NCBI GenBank assembly: GCA_963717145.1
Contig: OY970325.1
Span: 2,503,949 to 2,567,948 of the forward strand
Source: an uncultured Armatimonadetes bacterium
GTDB lineage: Bacteria; Armatimonadota; UBA5829; DTJY01
Length of the DNA: 64,000 nucleotides
Direction of reading: 5' to 3'
Below the pieces are notes generated by a model, which did no database searches, was not told where the DNA came from, and saw only the letters and a list, made by a program, of their open reading frames with translations. Below, in pieces: positions 9,974-61,769 of the stretch. The position numbers were made by a program, and so were the translations under genes. Within the stretch, counting starts at the first letter, position 1; each line of letters begins with the position of its first letter.

Positions 9974-10046
9974 CATTGTAGTGGCCGTGCCTCTGTGCCG
10001 GCCTACTACGTCCGCTGGCCGGCACAGAGGCACGGCCACTACAATG
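9974..10046. repeat. REP-like hairpin, family A (GTAGTGGCCGTGCCTCTGTGCCGGCC, 13-nt loop, reverse complement)
   Basis: Perfect ~29-bp stem read directly; 5' GTAG; abuts the start codon of the 9186..9971 gene and the stop of 10047..11057. Confidence 0.6.
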
Positions 10047-11057
10047 CTATTGCGGGACGACTTGCACCTTTACTGAATCCCGCCCGGCGGCGGTCTCAAG
10101 GGCCTTGGATACGTCATCGAGCCCGAAGCGGTGCGTGACGAGCGGCATGACTTCGACCTGCTTCGATGCGAGCATCTCGACCGCCCGCGCGTGGGTGAAC
10201 GGGTTGACGAACGACCCTACGATGGTCAGCTCCCGGTAGAAGATGTCGTAGGGCGAGATCCGCATAGTCTCCTGCGGGCTGACTACGCCGAACTGCAGGA
10301 TCGTGCCGCCTCTCCGCGCCAGTTTCGGGGCGAGTTCGGCGGTTTCCAGGCGTCCGGCGCACTCGATCACGACATCTGCTCCGACGACCGTCGATTCCAG
10401 CACTTCGGCCTTCGGATCGCAGGCCGAGGGGTCGATCTCGACCTCCGCGCCGAGTTGACCGGCCATGCGGCGCTTCCTCTCGTCCGGCTCGCTCACGATC
10501 ACGCGAGCACCGGCGGCCTTCGCCAGTTGAACCATCAGCAGCCCGATCGAGCCTGCCCCGAGGATCACCACCGTGCTCCCGGCGACGACACGCGCCCGGT
10601 CGATACCGTGGATGCAGCAGGCCAGCGGCTCGGCGAACGCCGCTTCATCGAGGCTGACGCTGTCCGGCACTCCATACGCCTGCTCGGCCGGAACGCGGCA
10701 GTACTCGGCGAATCCACCGTCGTAGTTCACTCCGACCGCCGTGAGGTTCTCGCACAGATGGATCTCGCCACGGGTGCAGAACCGGCATGTATGGTCCACG
10801 ATATTCGGATCGACGGTAATCCGATCGCCGACCTTGGCATTCGTAACCTCGTCACCCACCGCGACGATCTCGCCGGAGAACTCGTGGCCGGGAATGACGG
10901 GGAACCTGACGATATGCTCGCCGGCAAATATGTGCAGATCCGTGCCACAGACGCCGCACGCGTGTACTTTGACCAAAGCATCGCCCGCGCCGATCTCGGG
11001 TATCGGCCTCTCTTCAACGACGAGCTTATTCGGTTCAAGGAATACGACCGCCTTCAT
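10047..11057 (-). CDS. Zinc-dependent alcohol dehydrogenase (MDR superfamily, sorbitol/threonine-dehydrogenase-like)
   Basis: Track ORF trimmed to MKAVVF...; CGVCGTDLH, GHEFSG and GAGSIGL motifs. Confidence 0.75.
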   Translation of the reverse strand: MKAVVFLEPNKLVVEERPIPEIGAGDALVKVHACGVCGTDLHIFAGEHIVRFPVIPGHEFSGEIVAVGDEVTNAKVGDRITVDPNIVDHTCRFCTRGEIHLCENLTAVGVNYDGGFAEYCRVPAEQAYGVPDSVSLDEAAFAEPLACCIHGIDRARVVAGSTVVILGAGSIGLLMVQLAKAAGARVIVSEPDERKRRMAGQLGAEVEIDPSACDPKAEVLESTVVGADVVIECAGRLETAELAPKLARRGGTILQFGVVSPQETMRISPYDIFYRELTIVGSFVNPFTHARAVEMLASKQVEVMPLVTHRFGLDDVSKALETAAGRDSVKVQVVPQ

Positions 11058-11068
11058 CCGTTCACCGT

Positions 11069-11266
11069 TCACGGCTTTGCCGCCGGATCATTCTGCAGGC
11101 CCTGCAGGCGATGGGTCAACTCGTCGACGTTCACCTGCACCATGTCGAGCGCGATGAACAGGCTGTTGCCCTTGACCAACTCCTGGGCGCGCTTCACCAT
11201 GTCCTTGTAGCCGGAGACGTCCATACCCTTTGTCTGACCCTTGGCGATGAGGTCATTCAGCGTCAC
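11069..11266 (-). CDS. Small hypothetical protein (50-65 aa)
   Basis: Track ORF with strong GC3 codon bias (MDVSGYKDMVKRAQELVKGNSLFIALDMVQVNVDELTHRLQGLQ...) filling the gap between two genes; no family recognised. Confidence 0.35.
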   Translation of the reverse strand: MTLNDLIAKGQTKGMDVSGYKDMVKRAQELVKGNSLFIALDMVQVNVDELTHRLQGLQNDPAAKP

Positions 11267-13109
11267 CGATGGCCTCCTCCACGACCTCGACCGGCAGAAA
11301 CCCCTCGGGCCGGATGCCGGTGATCAGCGAAGGCTCCCCAACAATGAGCAACTCGACGCGGTTCTTCTTGGGCTTGACCTCGATCTTCTCGCCCGTTGCG
11401 CGGGTGATGATCGTGGTCTGATCCGTCGGGACGTGGACCGTCACCGGATCCCCGGTCGCCCAGATATACAGGCTTTCCTCTCCTCCGGGCATCAGCAGCG
11501 CGTATCCCGCCAGCTTGCCACCGAGTACCATGTTGCGACCCGACAGCAGCGCGGGCAACCACCAGGTCCCCACGCCCAGCTTCTTCACGGACCCCCTGGC
11601 CATGCCCTGTGGATAGTATACGACTGTAGGGCGGAAAGCCGCGAACTGCGGATCGGACGCCACCGTCGTACCATACTGCGCGAGCCATAGGAGCACGTCA
11701 GCGCCTGAGGCCTGCTTCGGGACAGCGCTCTCGTCGAGGAAGAACCCCTTCGCGCCGAGGTCACGAAGCCCGTTGATGTGGGCGAAAAGCTGGTCCTTCT
11801 GCTGGAAAACCGCTCCGTCACCTTGTATGCGGGACACGATCCACATGTTCCGAGACGAGTGCTCGGCCATCGAGTAGACGTTGCCTCCCTGGGTCGGGAG
11901 GCTCTGGAGTCCACGCGCGGGAACCGCCAGTCCATCGAATCCGAAGGGTTGCTGCTCCTGGAAGAACGGCTGCAGATCATCAGCGGTGAAGACAACGGGC
12001 ACATCAGCCACTGTGCGCTTCAGGACATCAGCAACTCCGTCCATGTAACTACGCACGGATTCGGAGCGAAACTCCACAAGATCATTCCAGAGGGCAGTGG
12101 TCGTCGCCTCCACATCGTACTTTCGGCCGGTCTTGTCGTCATATACCGCAGCGAGTCCCCTGCCCTGTCGCCACATCGGGATCAGGTTGACCGCCTCGTC
12201 GAACGATGCTATCTCGTGCCGGAGAACCGACCATGCGACCTTCACGCCGTCGACCGTGCGATACTTACGGCTCAGCCATGCCGCGTACTCCATCCTGAAG
12301 CCGGGCGATGTCGGAACGAGAGCAGCGACTTCCCCGCGCAGGCCCAATCGCTCGCCGAACGGATCGGTGAAGAACCGCAGGCCCTTGCCCCACTTGATCT
12401 TCGGCAGGACGTATGCCAGCCGGTCCCGGTGCGCGTCGACATCGCTCCAGAGGTCGGGCAGACTCCAATCCTGCGACTCGGGAACGATCACCTTCTGGGG
12501 ATAGATGAGCAGGGTATGCTCGACGCCGGCCTCGATGTTCGCCTGCACACTCAGCGTGCCCCCGGGAACCAACGCCTGCCCGAGGTCGAGGACCGCGGCG
12601 CTCTTCGCGTCACAGAGGGCGTAGAAGGCAAGCTTGGTGTCCGGCATCTCCTTGGTGACAACCCCAGATGTCACGATGCCGCTAACCCTGTTTACGCTCG
12701 GATCGATGACGTAGCCGGTGAGCGGCGTATATGGCGAGTCGTCGAGTTCGATGCCGTATGTGAGGCCGTTCTCCTCCAGGAGATCGATGGTTTTCTGCCA
12801 GGCCTCGACGGGGATAGCGGATATGCCTTTGCCCGGAGTGATGATGATATCCTTGATCCCCGCAAGAGTGAACGCCTCGAGGTCGTCCCTGTCGGCGGCC
12901 AGATTCTCGTCGGTCTGCTCGGCCGAAAGGTACCTGGGCTTGAAGACGAGCCCGAACGGCACGTATGGCGAGCCATCCCACGTCAGTGTATGGGCGGCGT
13001 CTATCGTCCAGGGATGCTTGTCGCCGTCCCGGTCCTCATACGTTCCTGCGAACGCGCCGGGGACGGCGATGATAACAAAGCATATCAGTAGGACAAGTGT
13101 TGTCTTCAT
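11253..13109 (-). CDS. Secreted hypothetical protein (signal peptide; possibly glycoside-hydrolase-like)
   Basis: Track ORF 11253..13367 trimmed to MKTTLVLLICFVIIAVPGAFA (ATG at 13109), a classic signal peptide. Upstream 86 codons are read-through of a hairpin. Confidence 0.6.
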   Translation of the reverse strand: MKTTLVLLICFVIIAVPGAFAGTYEDRDGDKHPWTIDAAHTLTWDGSPYVPFGLVFKPRYLSAEQTDENLAADRDDLEAFTLAGIKDIIITPGKGISAIPVEAWQKTIDLLEENGLTYGIELDDSPYTPLTGYVIDPSVNRVSGIVTSGVVTKEMPDTKLAFYALCDAKSAAVLDLGQALVPGGTLSVQANIEAGVEHTLLIYPQKVIVPESQDWSLPDLWSDVDAHRDRLAYVLPKIKWGKGLRFFTDPFGERLGLRGEVAALVPTSPGFRMEYAAWLSRKYRTVDGVKVAWSVLRHEIASFDEAVNLIPMWRQGRGLAAVYDDKTGRKYDVEATTTALWNDLVEFRSESVRSYMDGVADVLKRTVADVPVVFTADDLQPFFQEQQPFGFDGLAVPARGLQSLPTQGGNVYSMAEHSSRNMWIVSRIQGDGAVFQQKDQLFAHINGLRDLGAKGFFLDESAVPKQASGADVLLWLAQYGTTVASDPQFAAFRPTVVYYPQGMARGSVKKLGVGTWWLPALLSGRNMVLGGKLAGYALLMPGGEESLYIWATGDPVTVHVPTDQTTIITRATGEKIEVKPKKNRVELLIVGEPSLITGIRPEGFLPVEVVEEAIGDAE

Positions 13110-13128
13110 GGTGTCAAGAGCCTCTGAA

Positions 13129-13241
13129 CCGTCAGTCCTGAGTGCGCCGGTGAATGACGGCGTGTATCGAAGGACGGCCTTGCGCCACCGAGCCGTCCTT
13201 CGATACACGCCGTCATTCACCGGCGCACTCAGGACTGACGG
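13129..13241. repeat. Perfect 50-bp inverted repeat with 13-nt loop, downstream of argS
   Basis: 13129-13178 ccgtcagtcctgagtgcgccggtgaatgacggcgtgtatcgaaggacggc is the exact reverse complement of 13192-13241; verified base by base. Confidence 0.7.
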
Positions 13242-13278
13242 TACGCGGTTACCGGTACCTATCATACGCGAAATCCGG

Positions 13279-14955: not shown

Positions 14956-14963
14956 GATCTCTC

Positions 14964-15188: not shown

Positions 15189-15220
15189 TTCTCATTCCTC
15201 CACATTCGTCAGACCCGGGT

Positions 15221-15290
15221 CGGGTAGTGGCCGTGCCTCAGTGCCGGCCTTCCGCCTCACTGGCCGGCACTGAGGCACGGCCACTACCCG
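15221..15290. repeat. REP-like hairpin, family A
   Basis: cgggtagtggccgtgcctcagtgccggcc + 12-nt loop + ggccggcactgaggcacggccactacccg; perfect stem. Confidence 0.6.
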
Positions 15291-15291
15291 C

Positions 15292-16449
15292 TCAAAACAC
15301 CACCGGCAGCACCGAGTGAAGCAGCTCCCCAATGCTCATCATAACTGCCGCGCCGAGCATCACCTGGGGCATTCCCGTATTCCAGAACCGCCGCCATCCC
15401 GTCACATGGTAGGCGGGGTTCTCCCTGTATCTCGCGAGCAGGCTCTCACCCGCTCGGATCCCGCTCATCAACTGCCCCGGACTCGCCGGCTTGGTGGTCA
15501 CATAATTCTGGACATACGCGCCGATGCTGCGCCACGCAAAGATCATGACGAAGATCGTCACCATTGCCACGATCTCCGTTCCGAACGCCTGGGCAATCAG
15601 CAGGAACAGCACCACCGCCGCTACTATGTTCGTGCCGCACCTGGGATGCACCCTCGGCATCCTCGCGACGGTATCCGGCTTGAGCGGCTCCCCATGCTCG
15701 ATGGCGTGTACGACCTGGTGCTCGGCGGCATGATATCCCGACAACGGCGCCAGTCTCAGCAGCAAAAGAAACAGCGGGACGGACATGCCGAACATGATCG
15801 TGCGCGCGGTATCCATCCAACCCACCGGATTGAACCCGGTCCAGTTCAGAGCCGCCCAGAGGCGGATGCCGGTCGCATGCTCGATCGCCCAGGCCAGGCC
15901 GGCTATCAGGCCGATCGCCAGGTAGTTCAACATCATCAGCGAGACGCCCGCCAGAAACAGTCCGAAATCGCCCGCGCCGGCGCGGATATGGCCGGTGGTC
16001 AGATATACCCCCAGCGGTGTCGCCATTCCCGCGATCGAAGGCGGCCGAATGCTCATGGTGAGCGCACCCGCGACATCCGAGCGAGTCACAACTCCGAGAT
16101 AGCGGCCGTACTCATCGATGATCGGAAGCACTCCTACCCCGTGTTCGTCCATGACCGCCGCAGTCTGGCCCACGGACATGCGCGAGCTGCCATAGACGAC
16201 TTCACGCGTCATCACCGATTCGACCGCCGCTGTCGCGGCATCAGGATCCCCGTCGCGCTTCACGAGGGCCGACAGAATGCCCGCCTCGCCGACCGTGCCG
16301 ACCAGTCTGCCCGCATCGAGGACGGGCAGTTCGGTCACGCCTGAGACCCTCAGGGACTCGGCGGCTCGGGCGACGGTGTCGGTCGCGGCGACGGGCGCCA
16401 CGATCTTGAGAATATTCAGAATCGGCCCATCTCGCATATCTCGGTCCAA
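15292..16449 (-). CDS. CBS-pair domain fused to DUF1385 (YqhQ-like) membrane domain
   Basis: Track ORF, 385 aa; N-terminal CBS-like region, then ...SGYHAAEHQVVHAIEHGEPL...HPRCGTNIVA..., matching remembered DUF1385 motifs (YHGAEHK...HPRCGT). Confidence 0.6.
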   Translation of the reverse strand: MDRDMRDGPILNILKIVAPVAATDTVARAAESLRVSGVTELPVLDAGRLVGTVGEAGILSALVKRDGDPDAATAAVESVMTREVVYGSSRMSVGQTAAVMDEHGVGVLPIIDEYGRYLGVVTRSDVAGALTMSIRPPSIAGMATPLGVYLTTGHIRAGAGDFGLFLAGVSLMMLNYLAIGLIAGLAWAIEHATGIRLWAALNWTGFNPVGWMDTARTIMFGMSVPLFLLLLRLAPLSGYHAAEHQVVHAIEHGEPLKPDTVARMPRVHPRCGTNIVAAVVLFLLIAQAFGTEIVAMVTIFVMIFAWRSIGAYVQNYVTTKPASPGQLMSGIRAGESLLARYRENPAYHVTGWRRFWNTGMPQVMLGAAVMMSIGELLHSVLPVVF

Positions 16450-16507
16450 ACCCTTGCAGAACCTGCCCGATGTGTGCTATTATGAAGTGTTGTGCGTCTC
16501 AACATCC

Positions 16508-16571
16508 GTAGTGGCCGTGCCTCAGTGCCGGCCAGTAACGTGATTGGCCGGCACTGAGGCACGGCCACTAC
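16508..16571. repeat. REP-like hairpin, family A
   Basis: gtagtggccgtgcctcagtgccggcc + agtaacgtgatt + ggccggcactgaggcacggccactac; upstream of rpmB. Confidence 0.6.
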
Positions 16572-16611
16572 ACAAGGTTTTCCTACCGATCAGCAGGAGG
16601 TTTACTCGATA

Positions 16612-16830
16612 ATGGCACGAACTTGTGATGTCTGCGGCAAAGGCCCGCAGTTCGGTCAGAATATCCGTCACCAGCACTCCGGATCGTGGGCATTGCGCGC
16701 CCCCAAGACCAAGCGCAGATGGAATCCCAACCTGCAGACCGTCCGCGTCGCCAATGGCAAGACCAGCACGCGACAGATGTCAGTCTGCGCCAAGTGCCTC
16801 AAGGCCGGCAAGGTCGTCAAGGCCACTTAG
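16612..16830 (+). CDS. rpmB: 50S ribosomal protein L28
   Basis: Track ORF, 72 aa: MARTCDVCGKGPQFGQNIRHQHSGSWALRAPKTKRRWNPNLQTVRV... Confidence 0.85.
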   Translation: MARTCDVCGKGPQFGQNIRHQHSGSWALRAPKTKRRWNPNLQTVRVANGKTSTRQMSVCAKCLKAGKVVKAT

Positions 16831-16841: not shown

Positions 16842-16910
16842 GAAGTCAGAAGTCAGAAGTCAGGAGTCAGAATGGATTCCGCTTCTTCTGACTTCTGGCT
16901 TCTGACTCCT
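16842..16910. terminator. Hairpin built from GAAGTCAGA repeats between convergent rpmB and the ABC ATPase gene (putative bidirectional terminator)
   Basis: gaagtcagaagtcagaagtcaggagtcag ... ctgacttctggcttctgactcctgac inverted repeat just after the rpmB stop; no clean U-tract, so the terminator role is inferred. Confidence 0.45.
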
Positions 16911-16925
16911 GACTACCGGATTATA

Positions 16926-37502: not shown

Positions 37503-39557
37503 CTACGCCTTTCGATCGCCAAAGAACCTCTGCACATCGGCCATGTTGACCGTGACGGGGCACTGGGGGAGGAAGCGGATGAACTCCTTGCCATACATCT
37601 TCTTGATCAGCCGCGAGTCGAGGATCGCGACGACTCCCCGGTCGAGCTTCGTGCGGATGAGGCGTCCGAATCCCTGCTTGAGCCTGATCTGCGCCTGGGG
37701 CATCGAGAAATCGCGGAACCAGTCGCCGCCGGATGCCATGATCGCATCGGTGCGCGCCTTGTTGACCGGGCTGTCCGGCACGGCGAACGGGAGCTTGTCG
37801 ATCACCACGATGCTGAGCGCCTCGCCCCGGATATCGACGCCCTCCCAGAAGCTGTGGACGCCGAACAGGCATGCTTGATCCTGCTCCAAGAACGACTGGA
37901 CGAGCGCCTCGTTCGACATGTCGCCCTGCTTCATCATGGTAAACGGCAGCCGCCCGAACAGCCTATCGTAGACGGCATTGAGCATCCGGTATGAGGTGAA
38001 GAGCAGGAACGCCCGCCCGCCGGACGCCCGCACAAGCTGCTCGATCTCCTCGGCGACGGCATCCGTGTACATCGGATTCTCGGACGGGAATTCGAGATGC
38101 CGCGGGATGTAGAGCATGCACTGCGTGGTGAAGTCGAACGGCGAATCCTGCGCGGTCTCGACGCACTCGGGCACTCCGAGCCGGCCCCGGAGGTAGCCGA
38201 ACGTGCCGGAGTTCGTGAGCGTCGCCGAGGTCAGCACGACGCTGTCGATCTCCTTCCAGAGGTTCTGCTTGAGGATATCCGCCACGGAGAGCGGCGAGTA
38301 TCGGAGGAAACACGGGCCACCCGTATCCCCACGCCGTTCGGGAGGGAGTTGGACTCCCTCCCGCGACACTAGGGCTGGGAGTTCAACTCCCGATTGAGTC
38401 CTGCGGGAGGGAGTCCAACTCCCTCCCGAACGGCGTGGGGATGCTCCGCGCTCGCCCCACTTGAAGAAGCCCTTCTCCGTGCCGAAGAAGAGGAGCGTCA
38501 TCTCCTCCTTCAAACGCGCGGTCATCCTGCGCAGGCCCGAGAGCCGGTCCTCGAGTTCGGGCTTGCCGGTTGTATCCTGCTCGGTCAGCTCGCGGTTGAG
38601 CCCATCGAGCATCGAACAGATGACCTTGACTGTCTCCTCGACCTCCGACTTACTGTTTCCGCGACAAACCTCATGCAGGAAGAACTCCTGCTTTGGGTGG
38701 CCGGCGAAGAAGTCGAAGAGCGCGCGGTTCAGTTCGTCGAGTGTCTGTATCCGCTGGGGATCGAGGCCGATGCCCTTGACGCGCTTGATCCGCTTCAGGA
38801 GACTCGGCACGCGGAAGCTCGCACACTCGATGCCGAACGCCTTAGTGGCGATGTCCTCCAGGTGATGGGCCTCATCGAAGATCACGGCATCGTATGCGGG
38901 GAGGACCCCCGCGTTCGGGTCGGACATCCGGATGCCGAGATCGGCGAAAAAGAGCGAATGGTTCGTGATGATGACATTGGCGTCCTGGGCCTCGCGCCGC
39001 ATCTTGTAGTAGAAGCACTTTCCGACGAATCGGCACTGCTGATTGTGGCAGGTATCCTGGTTCGAGCAGATGTCCGACCAGTCGCCGAACTGGAAATCCA
39101 ACTCGCCGACGTCGCCGGTCTCGGTCTCGGCCGCCCACTTCTCGAGCTTCCTGAGGTTCGGGTCGCCGATGAGGTGAAGCTGCCCGGACTCGGCGTCGAA
39201 ACTGTTCATGCAGAGGTAGTTTCCCCGGCCCTTGACCACTACGGCCTTGATCTTCCGCTCGGGGAAGACGCTCTGAAGGAATGGGATGTCCTTGTTGAGA
39301 AGCTGGCTCTGGAGGTAGATGGTATGCGTGGAGACGATGACTTTCTTCCCGGTGAGGCTGAACTCGATCGCCGGGAGCAGGTAGGCCATGCTCTTCCCGA
39401 CGCCGGTGCCGGCCTCCGCGAGGCAGTGGTGCTTCGAGGCGAGCGCGCGCTCGATAGCGAGCGCGACCTCGATCTGCTGAGGCCGGTATTCGTAACCCGG
39501 CATCCGTTCTGCAATCAGTCCACTTGGGCCAAGCGCCCGCTCCAAGTCCATCTTCAA
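37503..39557 (-). CDS. dinG: DinG/Rad3-family ATP-dependent DNA helicase carrying an in-frame repeat-element insertion
   Basis: Track ORF, 684 aa; ...LAEAGTGVGKSMAYLLPAI... (Walker A), ...VIFDEAHHLED... (DEAH box); the low-complexity stretch PRRSGGSWTPSRRTQSGVELPALVSREGVQLPPERRG is encoded by repeat 38327-38440. Confidence 0.8.
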   Translation of the reverse strand: MKMDLERALGPSGLIAERMPGYEYRPQQIEVALAIERALASKHHCLAEAGTGVGKSMAYLLPAIEFSLTGKKVIVSTHTIYLQSQLLNKDIPFLQSVFPERKIKAVVVKGRGNYLCMNSFDAESGQLHLIGDPNLRKLEKWAAETETGDVGELDFQFGDWSDICSNQDTCHNQQCRFVGKCFYYKMRREAQDANVIITNHSLFFADLGIRMSDPNAGVLPAYDAVIFDEAHHLEDIATKAFGIECASFRVPSLLKRIKRVKGIGLDPQRIQTLDELNRALFDFFAGHPKQEFFLHEVCRGNSKSEVEETVKVICSMLDGLNRELTEQDTTGKPELEDRLSGLRRMTARLKEEMTLLFFGTEKGFFKWGERGASPRRSGGSWTPSRRTQSGVELPALVSREGVQLPPERRGDTGGPCFLRYSPLSVADILKQNLWKEIDSVVLTSATLTNSGTFGYLRGRLGVPECVETAQDSPFDFTTQCMLYIPRHLEFPSENPMYTDAVAEEIEQLVRASGGRAFLLFTSYRMLNAVYDRLFGRLPFTMMKQGDMSNEALVQSFLEQDQACLFGVHSFWEGVDIRGEALSIVVIDKLPFAVPDSPVNKARTDAIMASGGDWFRDFSMPQAQIRLKQGFGRLIRTKLDRGVVAILDSRLIKKMYGKEFIRFLPQCPVTVNMADVQRFFGDRKA
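38327..38440. repeat. Family E triple-hairpin element (114 bp) inside the DinG-like helicase ORF, in frame
   Basis: ccccacgccgttcg + gggagggagttggactccctccc + gggagttcaactccc + gggagggagtccaactccctccc + cgaacggcgtgggg; perfect terminal inverted repeats; 114 = 38 codons. Confidence 0.6.
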
Positions 39558-39612: not shown

Positions 39613-39701
39613 GGAAATGGGGAATGGTTGATGGTTCATGGTTAGTGGCGGACGGAGGTCTGCTTCCCATCAACCATGAACCATCAACCATTCCCCATTC
39701 C
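39613..39701. repeat. Palindromic repeat, family D
   Basis: ggaaatggggaatggttgatggttcatggtt ... cccatcaaccatgaaccatcaaccattccccattcc; intergenic, just upstream of the dinG-like start. Confidence 0.5.
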
Positions 39702-39769
39702 CAAAACAAAACCCCGGAGTCGGAACCCGGGGTTTGTATCTGAATGCCACCATGCAGGTGTCAACTACG

Positions 39770-42320: not shown

Positions 42321-43787
42321 GTAACAGTTCACGCTTGGGGATAACGAGTTTGATCAGGCAGGGAAGAGGACAGACTTGCCTGCGAGCAGTTGCCTGCATG
42401 ATTCGAGCATGTCCAGACCCCTGACGTGCCATGTGCCAAACAGACTCATGAGCGTCATCTTTGTCTCGGAACCCTTCGCGCTTCGTGTGCCTCCGCATAC
42501 CTTGCGGGCGATCACACACGGCCTCAGCGCTCGTTCTGCGCCATTGTTGTCCGACGGTACTTCCGGGTACTCTACGAACATGAACAACTCGTGCAAGCGA
42601 TCTATGAATCTCTTTGCCAGCGTCTGCTGTGGAGCATCTGAGCCGACATACGGACCTGAGAGCGCCTCTACCTCTTCCTCGAAGAGTACTCGCTTCCACT
42701 TGCGAACCTCCGCCTTCTTGCTCCGGAACTCCTTTGCCCGATCGTAAACACCCTTCACCGCATCCGCCCATGCGATGACGCCCGTGTCGTCCGCGTTCCT
42801 CTCCTTCAGTTTGTGCAGATCCCTGGCCAGATGTGCCCAGCATATCTGGCGGTCTGCAACTACCGGGTTGTATCCGGCATAGCAATCCGTTACCACTACC
42901 CCTTCGTAGTCGCCGCCTATCGTTTCCTTCGGGATCTCTCCACTCCGACTCCGCCGGTAGATGAAGTATCGCACGTTCTTAGTGGAGAAGGTCCAGATGT
43001 ATCCGTTCAGCCCATCCTCTCTCCAGCCCGTCTCGTCTGCGTTTATGTATGGGCTTCCACGTACAAGCGAGAGTAGCCGCTCTTTCTCTTTTTTGCCACA
43101 GTCTGCCACCGTGTGCAATATCTCGCTTATCTCTCCCACAGAGAGCTGAAGACCATACAGAGCCTTCAGCAATCCCTGTATCGTCCGCTTTGTCATGCGA
43201 CCTACCGTCGAAAGATACGATATCAGGCTCATCAGGTTCACGCCTACCCGATGCTTGCCTACAACCTGGCCGGAAAGGTCAACCTTCGGCACATGACTCT
43301 TGCCACAGTATCCGCATCTTCTGGCGATGAACCTGTGCTCGACTACGTCCACAGGCACGATGGGGATGTCGATGACTTGGCGGAGTCTCTTTACCGTGCC
43401 CCCTGTGAGCGCTCGGCCGCAGTCCGGACACTTCGAGTGCGCGTGCTCGACTACACGGGTGGGTGTCTCCCGCCTGCGCACGAACGACTTCTTGCGCTTC
43501 TTTCGTTCAGCTGCCCGGCGCTCTTTGCGGTTCGGCTTCACCCAGTCAGGCACGGATGGGGAACTGCCATCACCGCCGGAAAGCCTGGCGCGAAGGTCTT
43601 CGTTCTCCTTCTCCAGGTCGCCGATACGCGCCACGAGTTGGGGAACTAGACCTTCCAACTGGCTGACCCTGGCCTCAAGCTCCTCGTATGTCGGCTTGGA
43701 TTGCTCGCTCACACTCCTTGGTTCGAGACGCTCCCAGCAGGTTCCTTCTTCTTACAGACAAAATAATCCCTAAGCCTGAACTGTTAC
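42321..43787 (-). mobile_element. IS66-family insertion sequence, copy 1 (1467 bp, single transposase ORF)
   Basis: Imperfect terminal inverted repeats GTAACAGTTCACGCTTGGGGATAA / GTAACAGTTCAGGCTTAGGGATTA (rc) starting with GTAA; flanked by ccctgaaa at 42313-42320 and 43788-43795. Confidence 0.85.
42354..43712 (-). CDS. IS66-family transposase (452 aa, GTG start)
   Basis: Track ORF; N-terminal coiled-coil (EELEARVSQLEGLVPQLVARIGDLEKENEDLRARL), basic region, CxxC...CxxC zinc finger (CPDCGRAL...CGYCGKSH), DDE-type core. Confidence 0.85.
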   Translation of the reverse strand: MSEQSKPTYEELEARVSQLEGLVPQLVARIGDLEKENEDLRARLSGGDGSSPSVPDWVKPNRKERRAAERKKRKKSFVRRRETPTRVVEHAHSKCPDCGRALTGGTVKRLRQVIDIPIVPVDVVEHRFIARRCGYCGKSHVPKVDLSGQVVGKHRVGVNLMSLISYLSTVGRMTKRTIQGLLKALYGLQLSVGEISEILHTVADCGKKEKERLLSLVRGSPYINADETGWREDGLNGYIWTFSTKNVRYFIYRRSRSGEIPKETIGGDYEGVVVTDCYAGYNPVVADRQICWAHLARDLHKLKERNADDTGVIAWADAVKGVYDRAKEFRSKKAEVRKWKRVLFEEEVEALSGPYVGSDAPQQTLAKRFIDRLHELFMFVEYPEVPSDNNGAERALRPCVIARKVCGGTRSAKGSETKMTLMSLFGTWHVRGLDMLESCRQLLAGKSVLFPA

Positions 43788-43795: not shown

Positions 43796-45262
43796 GTAAC
43801 AGTTCACGCTTGGGGATAACGAGTTTGATCAGGCAGGGAAGAGGACAGACTTGCCTGCGAGCAGTTGCCTGCATGATTCGAGCATGTCCAGACCCCTGAC
43901 GTGCCATGTGCCAAACAGACTCATGAGCGTCATCTTTGTCTCGGAACCCTTCGCGCTTCGTGTGCCTCCGCATACCTTGCGGGCGATCACACACGGCCTC
44001 AGCGCTCGTTCTGCGCCATTGTTGTCCGACGGTACTTCCGGGTACTCTACGAACATGAACAACTCGTGCAAGCGATCTATGAATCTCTTTGCCAGCGTCT
44101 GCTGTGGAGCATCTGAGCCGACATACGGACCTGAGAGCGCCTCTACCTCTTCCTCGAAGAGTACTCGCTTCCACTTGCGAACCTCCGCCTTCTTGCTCCG
44201 GAACTCCTTTGCCCGATCGTAAACACCCTTCACCGCATCCGCCCATGCGATGACGCCCGTGTCGTCCGCGTTCCTCTCCTTCAGTTTGTGCAGATCCCTG
44301 GCCAGATGTGCCCAGCATATCTGGCGGTCTGCAACTACCGGGTTGTATCCGGCATAGCAATCCGTTACCACTACCCCTTCGTAGTCGCCGCCTATCGTTT
44401 CCTTCGGGATCTCTCCACTCCGACTCCGCCGGTAGATGAAGTAGCGCACGTTCTTAGTGGAGAAGGTCCAGATGTATCCGTTCAGCCCATCCTCTCTCCA
44501 GCCCGTCTCGTCTGCGTTTATGTATGGGCTTCCACGTACAAGCGAGAGTAGCCGCTCTTTCTCTTTTTTGCCACAGTCTGCCACCGTGTGCAATATCTCG
44601 CTTATCTCTCCCACAGAGAGCTGAAGACCATACAGAGCCTTCAGCAATCCCTGTATCGTCCGCTTTGTCATGCGACCTACCGTCGAAAGATACGATATCA
44701 GGCTCATCAGGTTCACGCCTACCCGATGCTTGCCTACAACCTGGCCGGAAAGGTCAACCTTCGGCACATGACTCTTGCCACAGTATCCGCATCTTCTGGC
44801 GATGAACCTGTGCTCGACTACGTCCACAGGCACGATGGGGATGTCGATGACTTGGCGGAGTCTCTTTACCGTGCCCCCTGTGAGCGCTCGGCCGCAGTCC
44901 GGACACTTCGAGTGCGCGTGCTCGACTACACGGGTGGGTGTCTCCCGCCTGCGCACGAACGACTTCTTGCGCTTCTTTCGTTCAGCTGCCCGGCGCTCTT
45001 TGCGGTTCGGCTTCACCCAGTCAGGCACGGATGGGGAACTGCCATCACCGCCGGAAAGCCTGGCGCGAAGGTCTTCGTTCTCCTTCTCCAGGTCGCCGAT
45101 ACGCGCCACGAGTTGGGGAACTAGACCTTCCAACTGGCTGACCCTGGCCTCAAGCTCCTCGTATGTCGGCTTGGATTGCTCGCTCACACTCCTTGGTTCG
45201 AGACGCTCCCAGCAGGTTCCTTCTTCTTACAGACAAAATAATCCCTAAGCCTGAACTGTTAC
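43796..45262 (-). mobile_element. IS66-family insertion sequence, copy 2, head-to-tail with copy 1
   Basis: Same 1467-bp unit offset by 1475 bp; differs from copy 1 by at least one synonymous substitution (copy 1 position 42970, t vs g); followed by ccctgaaa at 45263-45270. Confidence 0.85.
43829..45187 (-). CDS. IS66-family transposase (copy 2)
   Basis: Track ORF, 452 aa, protein identical to copies 1 and 3. Confidence 0.85.
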   Translation of the reverse strand: MSEQSKPTYEELEARVSQLEGLVPQLVARIGDLEKENEDLRARLSGGDGSSPSVPDWVKPNRKERRAAERKKRKKSFVRRRETPTRVVEHAHSKCPDCGRALTGGTVKRLRQVIDIPIVPVDVVEHRFIARRCGYCGKSHVPKVDLSGQVVGKHRVGVNLMSLISYLSTVGRMTKRTIQGLLKALYGLQLSVGEISEILHTVADCGKKEKERLLSLVRGSPYINADETGWREDGLNGYIWTFSTKNVRYFIYRRSRSGEIPKETIGGDYEGVVVTDCYAGYNPVVADRQICWAHLARDLHKLKERNADDTGVIAWADAVKGVYDRAKEFRSKKAEVRKWKRVLFEEEVEALSGPYVGSDAPQQTLAKRFIDRLHELFMFVEYPEVPSDNNGAERALRPCVIARKVCGGTRSAKGSETKMTLMSLFGTWHVRGLDMLESCRQLLAGKSVLFPA

Positions 45263-45361: not shown

Positions 45362-46030
45362 CTACCTTCTACGTCTGATCGCGAAGCCCATCAAGCCGAG
45401 GCCGCTCACAAGAGCAAGCAGGCTCGACGGCTCGGGAACTGCCGTGTAATCATAGGTAACTCGAGCCGAAGAAGAAGCCAGCGTCGAGAACTGCAAGATC
45501 AAGTTCCCTGCGCCGCTCCCAGTCGAAGCGCCAGTTGCGACCGACGGCAGTTCGATAAGCCCTGTTCCGGTGAACAGCGCCTTATCGGCCGCGGACGATG
45601 TGGTCGCGAACTCTGACTTGTCCGCTGACAGGCCTGTGTAGGTCCGTCCGGAAGTACCACCAAAATCGATGTTGCCATCAAATGTGGTGGCATCGTCAGT
45701 AGTGTGGGCAACCGGAATCGTCACGACCAGGTCACTGAGATCCGGGCGCTGGAGCTTCAGAACAGCCGAGAGGTCCATGGTAACCGTAGTCGGCCCGGCG
45801 TCCAGGCTTTCGAACTTCGCTGTTCCTTCTGCGTGGCCGTCCAGATAGAACGTGATGCTGTTCAGAGTACCCAATGCCGGGTTGAACATCTGAAGGAACA
45901 CCGATGACGACCAGTTCGTGCTGGAAAGTGGCTTGGCGTACGGACCATAGGACACTGTAGTTGCTCCTGCGACGGTTGCCAGGAGCCCTACGAGTGCCAA
46001 CACCAATACAACATTCCTCATAGAATTCAT
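45362..46030 (-). CDS. PEP-CTERM sorting-domain secreted protein
   Basis: Track ORF 45362..46318 trimmed to MNSMRNVVLVLALVGLLATVAGA (signal peptide); C-terminus VPEPSSLLALVSGLGLMGFAIRRRR is a canonical PEP-CTERM anchor. Confidence 0.7.
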   Translation of the reverse strand: MNSMRNVVLVLALVGLLATVAGATTVSYGPYAKPLSSTNWSSSVFLQMFNPALGTLNSITFYLDGHAEGTAKFESLDAGPTTVTMDLSAVLKLQRPDLSDLVVTIPVAHTTDDATTFDGNIDFGGTSGRTYTGLSADKSEFATTSSAADKALFTGTGLIELPSVATGASTGSGAGNLILQFSTLASSSARVTYDYTAVPEPSSLLALVSGLGLMGFAIRRRR

Positions 46031-47083: not shown

Positions 47084-47159
47084 GTAGGGAACGGTCGCCG
47101 TCCCGTTCCGCTATGGCGGATGTCTGCGACAACGGAACGGGACGGCGGCCGTTCCCTAC
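47084..47159. repeat. REP-like hairpin, family C (GTAGGGAACGGTCGCCGTCCCGTTCCG ... CGGAACGGGACGGCGGCCGTTCCCTAC)
   Basis: 27-bp stem with one mismatch, 22-nt loop, 5' GTAG; between hisB stop and hisH start. Confidence 0.55.
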
Positions 47160-47845: not shown

Positions 47846-47922
47846 GTAGGGAACGTGGCGCTGTCCCGTTCCGTTGTCGCCGACATCCAGCATAGCGGAA
47901 CGGGACGGCGACCGTTCCCTAC
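47846..47922. repeat. REP-like hairpin, family C, second copy
   Basis: gtagggaacgtggcgctgtcccgttccg + loop + cggaacgggacggcgaccgttccctac; its right arm overlaps the hisD stop codon (the TAG stop reads, on the minus strand, as part of GTAG). Confidence 0.55.
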
Positions 47923-49256: not shown

Positions 49257-50723
49257 GTAACAGTTCAGGCTTAGGGATTATTTTGTCTGTAAGAAGAAGG
49301 AACCTGCTGGGAGCGTCTCGAACCAAGGAGTGTGAGCGAGCAATCCAAGCCGACATACGAGGAGCTTGAGGCCAGGGTCAGCCAGTTGGAAGGTCTAGTT
49401 CCCCAACTCGTGGCGCGTATCGGCGACCTGGAGAAGGAGAACGAAGACCTTCGCGCCAGGCTTTCCGGCGGTGATGGCAGTTCCCCATCCGTGCCTGACT
49501 GGGTGAAGCCGAACCGCAAAGAGCGCCGGGCAGCTGAACGAAAGAAGCGCAAGAAGTCGTTCGTGCGCAGGCGGGAGACACCCACCCGTGTAGTCGAGCA
49601 CGCGCACTCGAAGTGTCCGGACTGCGGCCGAGCGCTCACAGGGGGCACGGTAAAGAGACTCCGCCAAGTCATCGACATCCCCATCGTGCCTGTGGACGTA
49701 GTCGAGCACAGGTTCATCGCCAGAAGATGCGGATACTGTGGCAAGAGTCATGTGCCGAAGGTTGACCTTTCCGGCCAGGTTGTAGGCAAGCATCGGGTAG
49801 GCGTGAACCTGATGAGCCTGATATCGTATCTTTCGACGGTAGGTCGCATGACAAAGCGGACGATACAGGGATTGCTGAAGGCTCTGTATGGTCTTCAGCT
49901 CTCTGTGGGAGAGATAAGCGAGATATTGCACACGGTGGCAGACTGTGGCAAAAAAGAGAAAGAGCGGCTACTCTCGCTTGTACGTGGAAGCCCATACATA
50001 AACGCAGACGAGACGGGCTGGAGAGAGGATGGGCTGAACGGATACATCTGGACCTTCTCCACTAAGAACGTGCGCTACTTCATCTACCGGCGGAGTCGGA
50101 GTGGAGAGATCCCGAAGGAAACGATAGGCGGCGACTACGAAGGGGTAGTGGTAACGGATTGCTATGCCGGATACAACCCGGTAGTTGCAGACCGCCAGAT
50201 ATGCTGGGCACATCTGGCCAGGGATCTGCACAAACTGAAGGAGAGGAACGCGGACGACACGGGCGTCATCGCATGGGCGGATGCGGTGAAGGGTGTTTAC
50301 GATCGGGCAAAGGAGTTCCGGAGCAAGAAGGCGGAGGTTCGCAAGTGGAAGCGAGTACTCTTCGAGGAAGAGGTAGAGGCGCTCTCAGGTCCGTATGTCG
50401 GCTCAGATGCTCCACAGCAGACGCTGGCAAAGAGATTCATAGATCGCTTGCACGAGTTGTTCATGTTCGTAGAGTACCCGGAAGTACCGTCGGACAACAA
50501 TGGCGCAGAACGAGCGCTGAGGCCGTGTGTGATCGCCCGCAAGGTATGCGGAGGCACACGAAGCGCGAAGGGTTCCGAGACAAAGATGACGCTCATGAGT
50601 CTGTTTGGCACATGGCACGTCAGGGGTCTGGACATGCTCGAATCATGCAGGCAACTGCTCGCAGGCAAGTCTGTCCTCTTCCCTGCCTGATCAAACTCGT
50701 TATCCCCAAGCGTGAACTGTTAC
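49257..50723 (+). mobile_element. IS66-family insertion sequence, copy 3 (inverted relative to copies 1/2) with perfect 8-bp target-site duplication AAAGACGT
   Basis: aaagacgt at 49249-49256 and again at 50724-50731 flank a 1467-bp unit with the same GTAA-initiated inverted repeats. Confidence 0.9.
49332..50690 (+). CDS. IS66-family transposase (copy 3)
   Basis: Track ORF, 452 aa, GTG start with AAGGAG 1 nt upstream (49325-49330); identical protein to copies 1 and 2. Confidence 0.85.
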   Translation: MSEQSKPTYEELEARVSQLEGLVPQLVARIGDLEKENEDLRARLSGGDGSSPSVPDWVKPNRKERRAAERKKRKKSFVRRRETPTRVVEHAHSKCPDCGRALTGGTVKRLRQVIDIPIVPVDVVEHRFIARRCGYCGKSHVPKVDLSGQVVGKHRVGVNLMSLISYLSTVGRMTKRTIQGLLKALYGLQLSVGEISEILHTVADCGKKEKERLLSLVRGSPYINADETGWREDGLNGYIWTFSTKNVRYFIYRRSRSGEIPKETIGGDYEGVVVTDCYAGYNPVVADRQICWAHLARDLHKLKERNADDTGVIAWADAVKGVYDRAKEFRSKKAEVRKWKRVLFEEEVEALSGPYVGSDAPQQTLAKRFIDRLHELFMFVEYPEVPSDNNGAERALRPCVIARKVCGGTRSAKGSETKMTLMSLFGTWHVRGLDMLESCRQLLAGKSVLFPA

Positions 50724-50760: not shown

Positions 50761-50839
50761 GCAACGTCCGGCTCATCTGAGACCGGATGATCACACACCT
50801 TCCCGGACTTCGGCGCTGGTGCTTGGCACGTTTTCGTTC

Positions 50840-50898
50840 GGGAGGGCGAGGCTCCGTCCGAGCCGCAATGCCTGGCTCGGACGGAGCCTCGCCCTCCC
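50840..50898. repeat. Perfect 25-bp-stem palindrome (9-nt loop) in the putative rpsB 5' leader
   Basis: gggagggcgaggctccgtccgagcc gcaatgcct ggctcggacggagcctcgccctccc; the preceding cgttcgggaggg matches the start of family E hairpins. Confidence 0.6.
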
Positions 50899-50966
50899 GC
50901 GTGAGCGGAACCAAGTCGGGCCGCGGACTGATGGGAAGGGCGGTATAAACCAGAAGGGAGAATCAG

Positions 50967-52437: not shown

Positions 52438-52546
52438 GGGAAATGGTTGATGGTTAATTGTTGATGGCAGAGGGGAATGGTTCATGGTTTTCATTCCCCA
52501 TTTCCCATTAACCATCGACCATCAACCATTTCCCCCATCAACCATT
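52438..52546. repeat. Palindromic repeat, family D (composite), between tsf and pyrH
   Basis: gggaaatggttgatggttaattgttgatgg ... ccattaaccatcgaccatcaaccatttcc, immediately preceding the pyrH ATG. Confidence 0.5.
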
Positions 52547-57415: not shown

Positions 57416-57420
57416 AGCAG

Positions 57421-58485: not shown

Positions 58486-58521
58486 ACCGCCGATGAACGC
58501 AAATGAACGCGGATGGGGAAC

Positions 58522-59158: not shown

Positions 59159-59164
59159 TTCATC

Positions 59165-60019
59165 TTGAAGTCACCACGAATCCTCAGCACGCGAATCTCT
59201 TTCGGACGAATCCTCATTCTCCTCAGCATACCGGCCCTGATCGCCGGAATCTGCGTCCTCGACGCACTGTTCATCGAACCGAACTTTCCGCGAGTGATCA
59301 CTCAGGAGATCGTGATCAAGGACCTCCCCAACCCACTCGATGGGCTCAAGATCGTGCACCTCACCGACCTTCATATTGTAACTGTCGGCAAGCGCGAGGA
59401 CAGAGCGCTCGCGAAGATCAACCTCATCAAGCCGGACGTCATTTGCATGACCGGTGACTACGTCGAGGACGATGGGATCACGCCGGGCTACCCAACGAAG
59501 GCGGATTGCACTCGCAGCTTCCGGTACTTTTCGTATCGCCTCAGGGCGAAGCACGGAGTATACGCCGTTTCCGGCAACTGGGATCCGCCCACGTTGGAGA
59601 CGGATATCGCTGGAACCGGGGTGACGATGCTGGATGACAAGGCGGTTACTCTGAGGATCGGAGGTGCGGACCTGACGATCTCGGGCAGCAGACCGGTGGA
59701 ACAGGGCCAGGTGAAGGCGCACCCGCTCATCGTGCTCGACCACTTCCCCGAGGTGGTCGACAACCTGGTGAGAACCGGAAGGCAGGTGGACCTGATGCTC
59801 GCCGGTCACTGGCATGGCGGCCAGGTGAACATCCCGGGCCAGACCCCGCAGGTGAAGTACCTCGCCGGATACTACAAGGTCGGCGACGCCCAACTCTACG
59901 TCGGTCGAGGGCTCGGGCATGCACACACATGCCGTTCGCTTCCGCTGTCCGTCCGAGATCACCCTGATCGTCCTCAGGCGCGGCTAGAACTCCTTGCCCC
60001 TCGCCGCCGTATCTGCTAG
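59165..60019 (+). CDS. Calcineurin-like metallophosphoesterase (YkuE-like), with probable C-terminal frameshift near the CA-repeat at 59922-59929
   Basis: Track ORF; ...VHLTDLHIV..., ...GNWD..., ...AGHWHGGQV...; the last ~30 codons look non-native, while an alternative frame gives ...AVRFRCPSEITLIVLRRG* ending at 59987. Confidence 0.65.
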   Translation: MKSPRILSTRISFGRILILLSIPALIAGICVLDALFIEPNFPRVITQEIVIKDLPNPLDGLKIVHLTDLHIVTVGKREDRALAKINLIKPDVICMTGDYVEDDGITPGYPTKADCTRSFRYFSYRLRAKHGVYAVSGNWDPPTLETDIAGTGVTMLDDKAVTLRIGGADLTISGSRPVEQGQVKAHPLIVLDHFPEVVDNLVRTGRQVDLMLAGHWHGGQVNIPGQTPQVKYLAGYYKVGDAQLYVGRGLGHAHTCRSLPLSVRDHPDRPQARLELLAPRRRIC

Positions 60020-60071
60020 AATCACTTGGCCGAGGCTCGCATAGCGAATCAGTGGCCGGAGGAGGCAATCC

Positions 60072-61664
60072 TTGAGTATTCCGGGATGGACGAACGTCCC
60101 TGTCGAGTTCGATCTCACCGCCGGAGCGACCGACCCCGACATAGAGGTCGATGTCGTCTTCAGCGGTCCGGCGGGGGAGTTCAGAGTGCCCGCGTTCCGG
60201 GCGGGAGGGAACGCGTTCCGAGTGCGTTTCGCCGCTCCTGAACGCGGCCGATACGCCTACCACACGATCTGTTCCGGCGACGACGACCTCAATGACCGGA
60301 CGGGCGATCTGCACATCGAGCCGTATGACGGCGACAATCCACTCTACCAACACGGACGCCTGAGAGTCGCACAGAATCACCGCACGCTGGAGCACTCCGA
60401 CGGCACTCCGTTCTTCTGGCTCGGCGACACCTGGTGGATGGGCCTCACGAAGCGGCTCGACTGGCCGAACGGTTTCGCATCCCTCGCCGCCGACCGGGTT
60501 GCCAAGGGGTTCAACCTGATACAGATCGTCGCCGGTCCGCTGCCCGACTTCGACGCCGAGTCCGCGACCTGGGATCCCCAGCAGGCGAACGAGGCGGGTT
60601 GGCCGTGGGAGCGCGACTGGGCGCGGATCAACCCCGAGTTCTACGATCTCGCCGATCAGCGGATCGCGCATCTCGTGGAGCAAGGGCTCGTCCCGTGCAT
60701 CGTCGGCATGTGGGGCTTCTACCTGCCGTTCATGGGCATCGACAAGGTCAAGCAGCACTGGCGCAACCTCGTCGCCCGATACGGTGCGTACCCGGTCGTA
60801 TGGTGCATCGCCGGCGAGGTGAAGATGCCGACCTACAGCCACCACGGCATCCCCGGCGCATGGCAGACCGAGGGCGCTGAGTTGGAGGCAGGCTGGACCG
60901 AAGTCGGGCACTACCTGAGGGAGATCGATCCCTACCACCATCCCGTGACTGTGCATCCCACGGGGGGCGCGAGCGGCCGTAACATGCTCCCCGAATCACT
61001 GATCGACGTCGACATGCTCCAGACCGGACACGGCGGCCACAATGTGCTTCCTCGGACGGTCGATATCACAGACACCGCCAATGCCAACACGCCGCGCATG
61101 CCGGTGGTCAACAGTGAGCCGTGCTACGAGGGCATCATGGGGACCGCCTGGCAGGAGATGCAGCGGTTCGTCTTCTGGACGAGCGTCATGTCCGGCTCAG
61201 CGGGCCACACATACGGCGCGCAAGGCATCTGGGCGATGAGTTCGCGCGACGAGCCGTTCCTCGGCTCCACCATGAACTGGGGCGACGGCTTTTGGCAGGA
61301 TGTAATGCATTATCAGGGCTCGGCGCAGGTAGGATTAGGCCGACGCTTCCTCGAACGATACCCCTGGTGGCTTTTCGAGCCGGTCACCGTGGAAGGTCTC
61401 TCCCGCAGTTCGTTCGGGATGGGCATCCCTGGCAAGGTGGCAGTGTTCTACCTCGCGGGGCAGTGGGCGGATCCGAAGTTCGCCGGGGTGCAGGGCCAGC
61501 GGATCGATATCGAGCCGAACGCGCGGTATCGGGCGTACTTCTTCGACCCGAGGACGGGCAAGGATGTCGCCATTGGACCGGTTGAGCCCGATCCGGACGG
61601 CCTGTGGCCGGTCCCGCGCAAGCCGTCGATGGACGACTGGGTACTCGTTCTCGAGAGGACGTAA
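60072..61664 (+). CDS. DUF4038 (GH140-like) glycoside-hydrolase-family protein with N-terminal beta-sandwich
   Basis: Track ORF, 530 aa (TTG start); ...DGTPFFWLGDTWW... characteristic of DUF4038 as remembered. Confidence 0.55.
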   Translation: MSIPGWTNVPVEFDLTAGATDPDIEVDVVFSGPAGEFRVPAFRAGGNAFRVRFAAPERGRYAYHTICSGDDDLNDRTGDLHIEPYDGDNPLYQHGRLRVAQNHRTLEHSDGTPFFWLGDTWWMGLTKRLDWPNGFASLAADRVAKGFNLIQIVAGPLPDFDAESATWDPQQANEAGWPWERDWARINPEFYDLADQRIAHLVEQGLVPCIVGMWGFYLPFMGIDKVKQHWRNLVARYGAYPVVWCIAGEVKMPTYSHHGIPGAWQTEGAELEAGWTEVGHYLREIDPYHHPVTVHPTGGASGRNMLPESLIDVDMLQTGHGGHNVLPRTVDITDTANANTPRMPVVNSEPCYEGIMGTAWQEMQRFVFWTSVMSGSAGHTYGAQGIWAMSSRDEPFLGSTMNWGDGFWQDVMHYQGSAQVGLGRRFLERYPWWLFEPVTVEGLSRSSFGMGIPGKVAVFYLAGQWADPKFAGVQGQRIDIEPNARYRAYFFDPRTGKDVAIGPVEPDPDGLWPVPRKPSMDDWVLVLERT

Positions 61665-61667
61665 CAT

Positions 61668-61769
61668 GTAGTGGCCGCGCCTCTGTGCCGGCTTCACCAC
61701 CTCGCTGGCCGGCACAGAGGCGCGGCCACTCCAACACAGAGCTGGCCGGCACAAAGGCACGGCCACTAC
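61668..61769. repeat. REP-like hairpin, family A, with duplicated right arm
   Basis: gtagtggccgcgcctctgtgccggc + loop + ggccggcacagaggcgcggccact, then a 13-nt spacer and a second right arm ggccggcacaaaggcacggccactac. Confidence 0.6.

Follow-up and report, generated by a model that had tools for sequence, protein, structure and literature searches.

Four long intergenic hairpins in a 64,000-nt stretch of DNA from an uncultured Armatimonadota bacterium (assembly GCA_963717145.1, contig OY970325.1, positions 2,503,949 to 2,567,948; the whole stretch is called the window below) are very likely head-to-head homodimers, with their GTAG ends outward, of a 26-nt GTAG-type repetitive extragenic palindrome (REP) that we named REP-A. 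They resemble REPINs (REP doublets forming hairpins) and would have been dispersed by a REP-associated tyrosine transposase (RAYT). Using the 26-mer GTAGTGGCCGYGCCTCWGTGCCGGCC as a query, we screened both strands of the window, allowing for up to three mismatches (GKAGTGGCCGYGCCTYWGTGCCGGCY gives the motif as a both-strand search sequence). The search yielded nine units with the consensus GTAGTGGCCG(T/C)GCCTC(A/T)GTGCCGGCC. The number expected by chance is 0, as no match was obtained in 100 dinucleotide-preserving shuffles, and no additional copy was found in the window even when up to eight mismatches were allowed. The nine units make up four inverted pairs and one extra unit at the final locus (Table 1). 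A sequence-only reading of the same DNA had described four near-identical long-stem hairpin loci, the last of them with a duplicated right arm; both descriptions hold, the duplicated arm being the extra unit. GTAG forms the head of eight of the nine units and GGAG that of the remaining one.

Table 1. REP-A units in the window, with positions counted from the first letter of the window.
Unit	Position	Strand	Remarks
Doublet 1, left unit (GTAGTGGCCGTGCCTCTGTGCCGGCC)	9978-10003	+	0 mismatches to consensus
Doublet 1, right unit	10017-10042	-	Head-to-head homodimer, 13-nt spacer
Doublet 2, left unit, A at position 17	15224-15249	+	Consensus search
Doublet 2, right unit	15262-15287	-	12-nt spacer, stem extends to 15221-15290
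Doublet 3, left unit	16508-16533	+	Consensus search
Doublet 3, right unit	16546-16571	-	12-nt spacer
Doublet 4, left unit, C at position 11, terminal C replaced by T	61668-61693	+	Consensus search
Doublet 4, right unit, GGAG head, C at position 11	61707-61732	-	13-nt spacer
Extra unit, CTTTGT loop variant, in tandem with the right unit of doublet 4 (trimer)	61744-61769	-	Consensus search

The palindromes of the first two doublets reach past the 26-mer, with 34-nt arms (97%) at 9970-10003/10017-10050 in doublet 1 and 29-nt arms (100%) at 15221-15249/15262-15290 in doublet 2. The two partners of each doublet carry the same sub-variant at positions 11 and 17 (T/T, T/A, T/A and C/T in doublets 1 to 4), and the changes therefore appear compensatory in the long stem. 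Each spacer in the window has a terminal CT adjoining one unit, the spacers being otherwise fairly divergent, and 11 nt separate doublet 4 from the extra unit.

Folded alone, a REP-A unit (26-27 nt) gives a stem-loop of -7.6 kcal/mol (z = -4.3), in which GTAG stays unpaired and T-GGCCG-(T bulge)-GC pairs with GC-CGGCC-A around the loop CTCTGT (CTCWGT across variants). The two positions that vary in the window correspond to the bulge (position 11) and to a loop base (position 17), and the extra unit at 61744-61769 makes its own small bulged stem-loop in RNA as well as in DNA folds. The doublets fold into one long hairpin of about -40 to -43.5 kcal/mol with DNA parameters (-42.5, -43.5 and -39.8 kcal/mol for the single strands of doublets 1, 2 and 3). 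RNA structure prediction, which the sequence-only reading had proposed, gave very stable doublet hairpins of about -72 to -76 kcal/mol (-72.6 kcal/mol for doublet 1), and the z-scores of the doublet folds were -8 to -14. We further aligned by hand 19 distinct variants, comprising REP-A sub-types, sub-types of a partner repeat described below (REP-B) and RAYT-flanking variants; the covariation seen in this hand-made alignment is supportive, not rigorous. Stem cells were paired in 88% of cases, compared to 24-43% with the 3' partner columns slid, and the stem pairs 8-24, 12-21 and 13-20 alternate among CG, GC, AT and TA. GTAG is invariant across the aligned variants and in homodimers pairs with the CTAC of the partner. 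The repeated unit, and probably also the mobile or recognised one, is the single 26-mer with its own stem-loop, not the long hairpin; the 26-bp long stems are there because two identical units sit head-to-head.

The motif recurs far beyond its copies in the window, in 60 metagenome contigs and in five contigs of one metagenome-assembled genome (MAG), a repetition that the sequence-only reading had suggested looking for (contigs and loci are cited below by our L numbers, proteins by P numbers). The 60 contigs, which were found in a metagenome scan for exact or near-exact units, have a GC content of 57-67% and share other repeat families with the window. The unit stands alone at about 30 of the metagenome loci and is paired head-to-head with REP-B (GTAGCGGCGCGGCTCCGTCCCGCCA) at about 14, while inverted pairs of two REP-A units were found at four loci, window-like in L013 and L065 and with longer spacers in L039 and L056. 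In addition, same-strand tandem arrays with a period of 37-39 nt occur at six to seven loci (L008, L016, L020, L047, L051, L052, L058). REP-B has the same design as REP-A, with a bulged stem and a CTCYGT loop, and regularly lies head-to-head at 0-9 nt from it (L007, L014, L015, L019, L020, L026, L031, L038, L048, L050, L052, L053, L063); a motif search did not find it in the window. In a scan of representative genomes, the exact 26-mer was detected only in five contigs (L001-L005) of the Desulfomonilaceae MAG JBGSLQ01, which belongs to another phylum. These contigs (GC 48-52%; 49% for the MAG) carry a single REP-A per repeated element of about 130 nt, in which REP-A faces a degenerate inverted unit, GTAGGGTCCGGCGTCTCTGCCGGACC, tail-to-tail. 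Since the host is of a different phylum and a different GC content, horizontal transfer or mis-binning is a possibility here. The window itself has nine units at four loci in 64 kb.

RAYT genes were found next to the repeat. Among the Y1-type open reading frames (ORFs) retrieved by a motif search of the fetched loci, three (L040, L052 and L016) match Pfam Y1_Tnp. Against the NCBIfam model NF047646 'REP-associated tyrosine transposase' (equivalog cut-off 80 bits), they score 95.9, 97.5 and 84.3 bits, respectively, and the homologues P0125, P0160 and P0127 reach 108.5, 101.4 and 101.0 bits. Scores against the IS200 model were 17.6-21.8 bits where reported, below its cut-off of 55 bits, while the L052 RAYT had no IS200 match among those listed. 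The best PDB match of the L040 RAYT, the only one queried, was 4er8, the E. coli TnpA-REP (phmmer E = 2e-5), and a protein search with it returned 99 relatives. As the sequence-only reading had anticipated, RAYTs scoring above the NF047646 cut-off are linked to the repeat, their genes being flanked by inverted GTAGTGGCCG-type units at four independent loci. The gene at L040 (duplicate locus L046) has an exact REP-A upstream and the inverted variant GTAGTGGCCGGACTCCGTGCCGGCCA downstream, that at L052 has a cluster of REP-A and REP-B upstream and four inverted REP-B units downstream, and those at L074 (an Armatimonadota MAG; P0125) and L075 (P0124) lie between inverted units of this type. The called N-terminus of P0122 is translated REP-A. 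The RAYT of L016 (213 aa) is about 31% identical to the others and is bracketed by same-strand arrays of another GTAG REP, GTAGCGCCGGCGGCTCGCCGGCAT (L016:2556-2790 and 3437-3610). As this RAYT is flanked by a different GTAG family, each RAYT clade has its own REP, and several RAYT/REP pairs coexist in these organisms.

No RAYT was found inside the window, either with a Y1-motif regular expression or by tblastn with eight RAYTs. A RAYT homologue of 162 aa, P0127, is recorded at NCBI/ENA on one contig of 5,366,867 nt, and four proteins of the window are each recorded on a contig of exactly this length; as length and sources agree, the genome of the window very probably encodes its own RAYT, of the REP-A-associated clade. 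P0127 shares 61-68% identity with the RAYTs of L040, L074 and L075. It contains HLH (…MPDHLHIAV…) and the tyrosine in …CKYILENPVRK…, and these HUH and Tyr motifs match those of E. coli TnpA-REP in the 4er8 alignment of the L040 homologue. We infer that P0127 would be the enzyme moving REP-A.

Homologues of the arginyl-tRNA synthetase (ArgRS) of the window assign it to Armatimonadota. We compared the window with its syntenic relatives (L066-L073), whose ArgRS is 85-90% identical to that of the window. REP-A is absent from all these syntenic loci, even with six mismatches allowed. Doublet 2 is lacking at the site between the stop of the CBS gene and the DUF1858 gene in L066, L069, L070 and L071; at this site L066 and L070 have short spacers without a hairpin and L073 has a hairpin of GAGTAAN heptamers. 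At the stop of the alcohol dehydrogenase (ADH)-like gene, L066 and L069 carry two other heptamer-repeat hairpins, and doublet 3 is absent from the rpmB/CBS spacer of L066, L069, L070, L071 and L073. The orthologous sites being without doublets, those of the window must have been acquired after the lineages split; judged by these alignments, they are recent insertions. The sub-variants shared within doublets and the terminal CT in the spacers suggest that doublets may propagate, or be homogenised, as whole units, the behaviour known from REPINs (PMC3337134, PMC3116915). All four window loci being doublets, and whole doublets missing at orthologous sites, speak for such propagation; the divergent spacers and the dominance of singletons in related contigs speak against it.

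Hairpins with heptamer arms (e.g. ATGGTTA/ATGGTTG, AGTCAGA, GAGTAAN, GGAGTGA) were observed at 537-614, 16842-16914, 39613-39702 and 52438-52534 of the window and at L073:1259-1354, L066:14894-14970 and L069:14899-14976 in relatives. In the sister genomes they occupy sites at which the window has REP-A doublets, and heptamer repeats also fill the spacers of REP-A doublets in L039 (326-426) and L056 (4942-5030). This class of hairpins looks less conventional than REPs. Moreover, the identical 26-mer is common to lineages with RAYTs only 60-70% identical and coding DNA about 65% identical, and to the Desulfomonilaceae MAG. Because a letter-perfect 26-mer spans divergent lineages and hairpin classes turn over at the same post-stop positions, one might propose that REP-RAYT spreads horizontally and that the 3' ends of genes serve as common landing sites, or as slots under selection, at which hairpin modules can replace one another. 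We regard this proposal as doubtful, although, if true, the horizontal spread would contradict the picture of REPINs as vertically inherited.

By analogy with E. coli TnpA-REP, a RAYT of the HUH/Y1 family would bind the REP-A stem-loop in single-stranded DNA and use the 5' GTAG as a guide; the DNA would then be cut and rejoined, and units could in this manner be dispersed in trans. The activity of the E. coli enzyme depends on the 5' GTAG; cleavage takes place at CT dinucleotides, and strands can be transferred (PMC3479197). Dimers with GTAG on the outside are the commonest type, known as head-to-head (HH), and their components may form separate folds or a single large stem-loop (PMC3733652); for definitions of GTAG REPs, HH dimers, REPINs and RAYT chemistry we followed PMC3733652, PMC3337134, PMC3479197 and PMC5581495. 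The assignment of the hairpins to REPs and a RAYT, made at first from the letters alone, is supported by the fold of the unit, its dispersal and its linkage to RAYT genes. Several points nevertheless weigh against it. The spacers differ much among the four doublets, more than one would wish if whole doublets had recently been copied, and P0127 is connected with the window solely through contigs of the same length (5,366,867 nt) and the same sources. Furthermore, perfect homodimers bury GTAG in a 26-bp stem of about -40 kcal/mol or stronger, and strengthening the palindrome abolishes cleavage in E. coli (cited in PMC3733652). As the long stem outcompetes two small hairpins and thereby buries GTAG, the homodimer copies of the window may be poor RAYT substrates.

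All four loci are intergenic, as had been stated before, and three of them begin 3-4 nt past a stop codon, upstream of a co-directional gene. The remaining locus, doublet 3, is positioned between the CBS gene and rpmB, which start divergently at 16449 and 16612. Doublet 1 begins 4 nt past the stop codon (10047-10049) of the ADH-like gene (10047-11072, minus strand), doublet 2 lies upstream of the DUF1858 gene, 4 nt past the stop codon (15292-15294) of the CBS/DUF1385 gene (15292-16449, minus strand), and doublet 4 follows 3 nt after the stop codon (61662-61664) of an apiosidase-like gene (60072-61664). The extra unit at 61744-61769 is located 23 nt upstream of the ORF of a glycoside hydrolase family 4 (GH4) gene (61793-63115). 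The genes flanking the doublets are ordinary chromosomal ones, encoding an ADH-like dehydrogenase, CBS/DUF1385, DUF1858, ArgRS, ribosomal protein L28, an apiosidase-like hydrolase and a GH4 glycosidase. It had also been claimed that the hairpin of doublet 1 sits where a gene starting at 9971 would have its ribosome-binding site; this claim is not supported. Alignment with orthologues places the start of this gene (9186-9959, minus strand) at a conserved ATG at 9959, which matches ATGCCCGGATT in the orthologues L066 and L069, and its ribosome-binding site GAGG at 9966-9969, outside the hairpin; these two orthologues do not share the longer ORF starts (9971 and 10025). Given the conserved start at 9959, and since the 26-nt core ends 8 nt upstream of GAGG, the core does not lie on the ribosome-binding site.

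When transcribed, the post-stop doublets would form RNA hairpins of roughly -70 kcal/mol without a U-tract, and as a side effect they would probably stabilise the 3' end of the mRNA, hinder read-through or dampen translation. Liang, Rudd and Deutscher reportedly found in 2015 that a REP within about 15 nt of a stop codon reduces the translation of the upstream gene. That the hairpins are primarily regulatory RNA of the host (terminators, 3' stabilisers, translation dampers), kept by selection and not mobile DNA, is nonetheless improbable. The location of three of the four doublets 3-4 nt past the stops of co-directional genes and the very stable RNA folds (-72 to -76 kcal/mol) agree with such a role, and the other hairpins at the ADH-end and CBS-end sites of relatives could mean that a hairpin is wanted there, but L066 and L070 do without any hairpin at the CBS-end site, no T-run follows any copy on either strand and one copy is placed between divergent gene starts. 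Moreover, convergent selection is insufficient to account for 26/26 identity beside unrelated genes, across contigs with about 65% coding identity, and the linkage to RAYT genes would be left unexplained. Intrinsic terminators were rejected as candidates in view of the missing U-tract at every copy and of the copy between divergent starts. A promoter and terminator scan of 16380-16680, covering doublet 3 only, returned nothing, its criterion of 3-8 nt loops excluding loops of 12-13 nt. Exaptation may have occurred on top of REP-A mobility. In the window as a whole, an Rfam search at the gathering threshold yielded no family and a tRNA/tmRNA scan no gene, while a loose search for a GTAG-N10-loop pattern was uninformative.

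With a short core between two perfect arms, the doublets also look like pairs of terminal inverted repeats, and an active-looking IS66-family element is present in the window in three identical copies, so that one could take the doublets for miniature inverted-repeat transposable elements (MITEs), with the 26-bp arms as terminal inverted repeats of a DDE-type insertion sequence (IS). This is very unlikely, as elsewhere the unit is mostly a singleton or a same-strand tandem, unlike the terminal repeats of MITEs, neither target-site duplications nor direct repeats were found at any doublet border, and the genes enclosed by inverted units encode Y1/RAYT enzymes instead of DDE transposases. A MITE of the IS66-family element of the window in particular was discarded, the ends of this element (GTAACAGTTCACGCTTGGGGAT, with the 8-bp duplication CCCTGAAA) being unrelated to REP-A. 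Equally remote is the view of the palindromes as operators of a dimeric regulator or a nucleoid protein, that is, as a regulon signal: perfect dyad symmetries do occur near several genes and one copy (16508-16571) does lie in a divergent promoter region, but three of the four copies stand at the 3' end of a gene, half-sites of 26 bp with a variable centre of 12-13 nt far exceed known operators, single half-units predominate in related contigs, the flanking genes are functionally unrelated and close relatives have these genes without the sites, so that operator palindromes were rejected on size and position.

Beside the REP-A homodimers, the window contains further repeats. A second GTAG REP family, GTAGGGAACGG(T/C)CGCCGTCCCGTTCC, with a 7-bp stem and an 8-nt loop, forms two head-to-head doublets, the units of each lying about 24 nt apart, at 47084-47159 and 47846-47922; three exact matches were obtained compared to 0 expected, and the family also matches L056. 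A lone palindrome, GTAGTTGCTCCTGCGACGGTTGCCAGGAGCCCTAC, at 45957-45991 is GTAG-tagged on both strands and could be the only representative of a further REP type. An inverted repeat at 13128-13242, directly downstream of the ArgRS gene, is perfect (51-nt arms, 13-nt loop) and has no relation to REP-A; the orthologous site holds one unit with a REP-A-like beginning (GTAGTGGCCGTGCGGCC...) in L066 and another GTAG-containing hairpin in L070. Long GC-rich hairpins with CGGGAGGGAGTNNNACTCCCTCCCG-like cores at 38325-38442, 5444-5547 and 50839-50899 represent another palindromic repeat family. The IS66-family element, the only IS of the window, is 1.47 kb long and present in three 100% identical copies (42321-43787, 43796-45262 and, inverted, 49257-50723) encoding a 452-aa DDE_Tnp_IS66 transposase, with GTAACAGTTCACGCTTGGGGAT as terminal repeats; the two copies in direct tandem share the 8-bp duplication.

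In the literature library that was searched, no report linking REP or REPIN-RAYT with Armatimonadota was found. REP-A belongs to the already known GTAG-REP/REPIN-RAYT kind, the phylum being new for this kind, and it leaves the current understanding of REP biology unchanged. The features beyond routine are the letter-perfect 26-mer across lineages, the partnership with REP-B and the turnover of hairpin classes at gene ends. Our data extend the REP/REPIN-RAYT partnership to a mostly uncultured phylum and offer a clean natural data set, in which one 26-nt unit is visible as singletons, homodimers, heterodimers, arrays and RAYT-flanking copies, together with insertion polymorphisms between sister genomes. 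For annotation, REP-A accounts for strong intergenic hairpins that could be mistaken for terminators or regulatory RNAs, and repeats of this type break metagenome assemblies, as many contigs end inside the repeat.

Among known systems, REP-A can be compared with the GTAG super-family (Di Nocera, De Gregorio & Rocco 2013, PMC3733652), which includes the SMAG repeats of Stenotrophomonas maltophilia; Armatimonadota are not mentioned in that paper. Both are extragenic palindromes of 20-40 nt with an unpaired GTAG end and a GC-rich stem of 6-9 bp, in which sub-families differ by complementary stem changes. Both occur as singletons, as head-to-head, tail-to-tail or head-to-tail dimers, with head-to-head preferred, and as clusters, are found mostly downstream of ORFs and flank RAYT genes. 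The spacers of 12-13 nt seen here differ from the 20-100 nt usual there, and the likeness of REP-A (TGGCCG-T-GC / CTCWGT) to this super-family, for which 24 family consensus sequences are published, is one of architecture. With the REPIN-RAYT systems of Pseudomonas and Enterobacteria (Bertels & Rainey 2011, PMC3116915, PMC3337134; Bertels 2017, PMC5581495), REP-A shares the long single hairpin made by two inverted REPs and a short spacer, as well as the presence of the repeats on both sides of a RAYT gene; its doublets may also behave as units, in view of their shared sub-variant. Unlike in REPINs, the spacers diverge more than the arms and singletons outnumber doublets in related contigs; furthermore, REPIN-RAYT systems are reported to be inherited vertically and to be lineage-specific, whereas the REP-A 26-mer spans RAYTs that are 60-70% identical and a MAG of another phylum. 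The bacterial interspersed mosaic elements (BIMEs) and TnpA-REP of E. coli (Ton-Hoang 2012; Messing 2012, PMC3479197; PDB 4er8) likewise have a 5' GTAG at the foot of an imperfect hairpin, and their y and z REPs correspond to the inverted pairing of REP-A with REP-B in metagenome loci. The RAYTs of the REP-A clade have the HUH motif and the catalytic tyrosine of the E. coli enzyme, and a CT abuts one unit in every window spacer; however, these proteins share little identity with the E. coli enzyme, the REP-A stem is shorter (6+2 bp with a bulge) with a conserved 6-nt loop, and in the window perfect homodimers take the place of the y/z heterodimers of E. coli. Finally, the IS200/IS605 elements have in common with REP-A a Y1 HUH transposase acting on single-stranded DNA with an imperfect hairpin and a 5' guide tetranucleotide, but REP-A has no transposase inside the repeated unit and its RAYTs score below the cut-off of the IS200 model.

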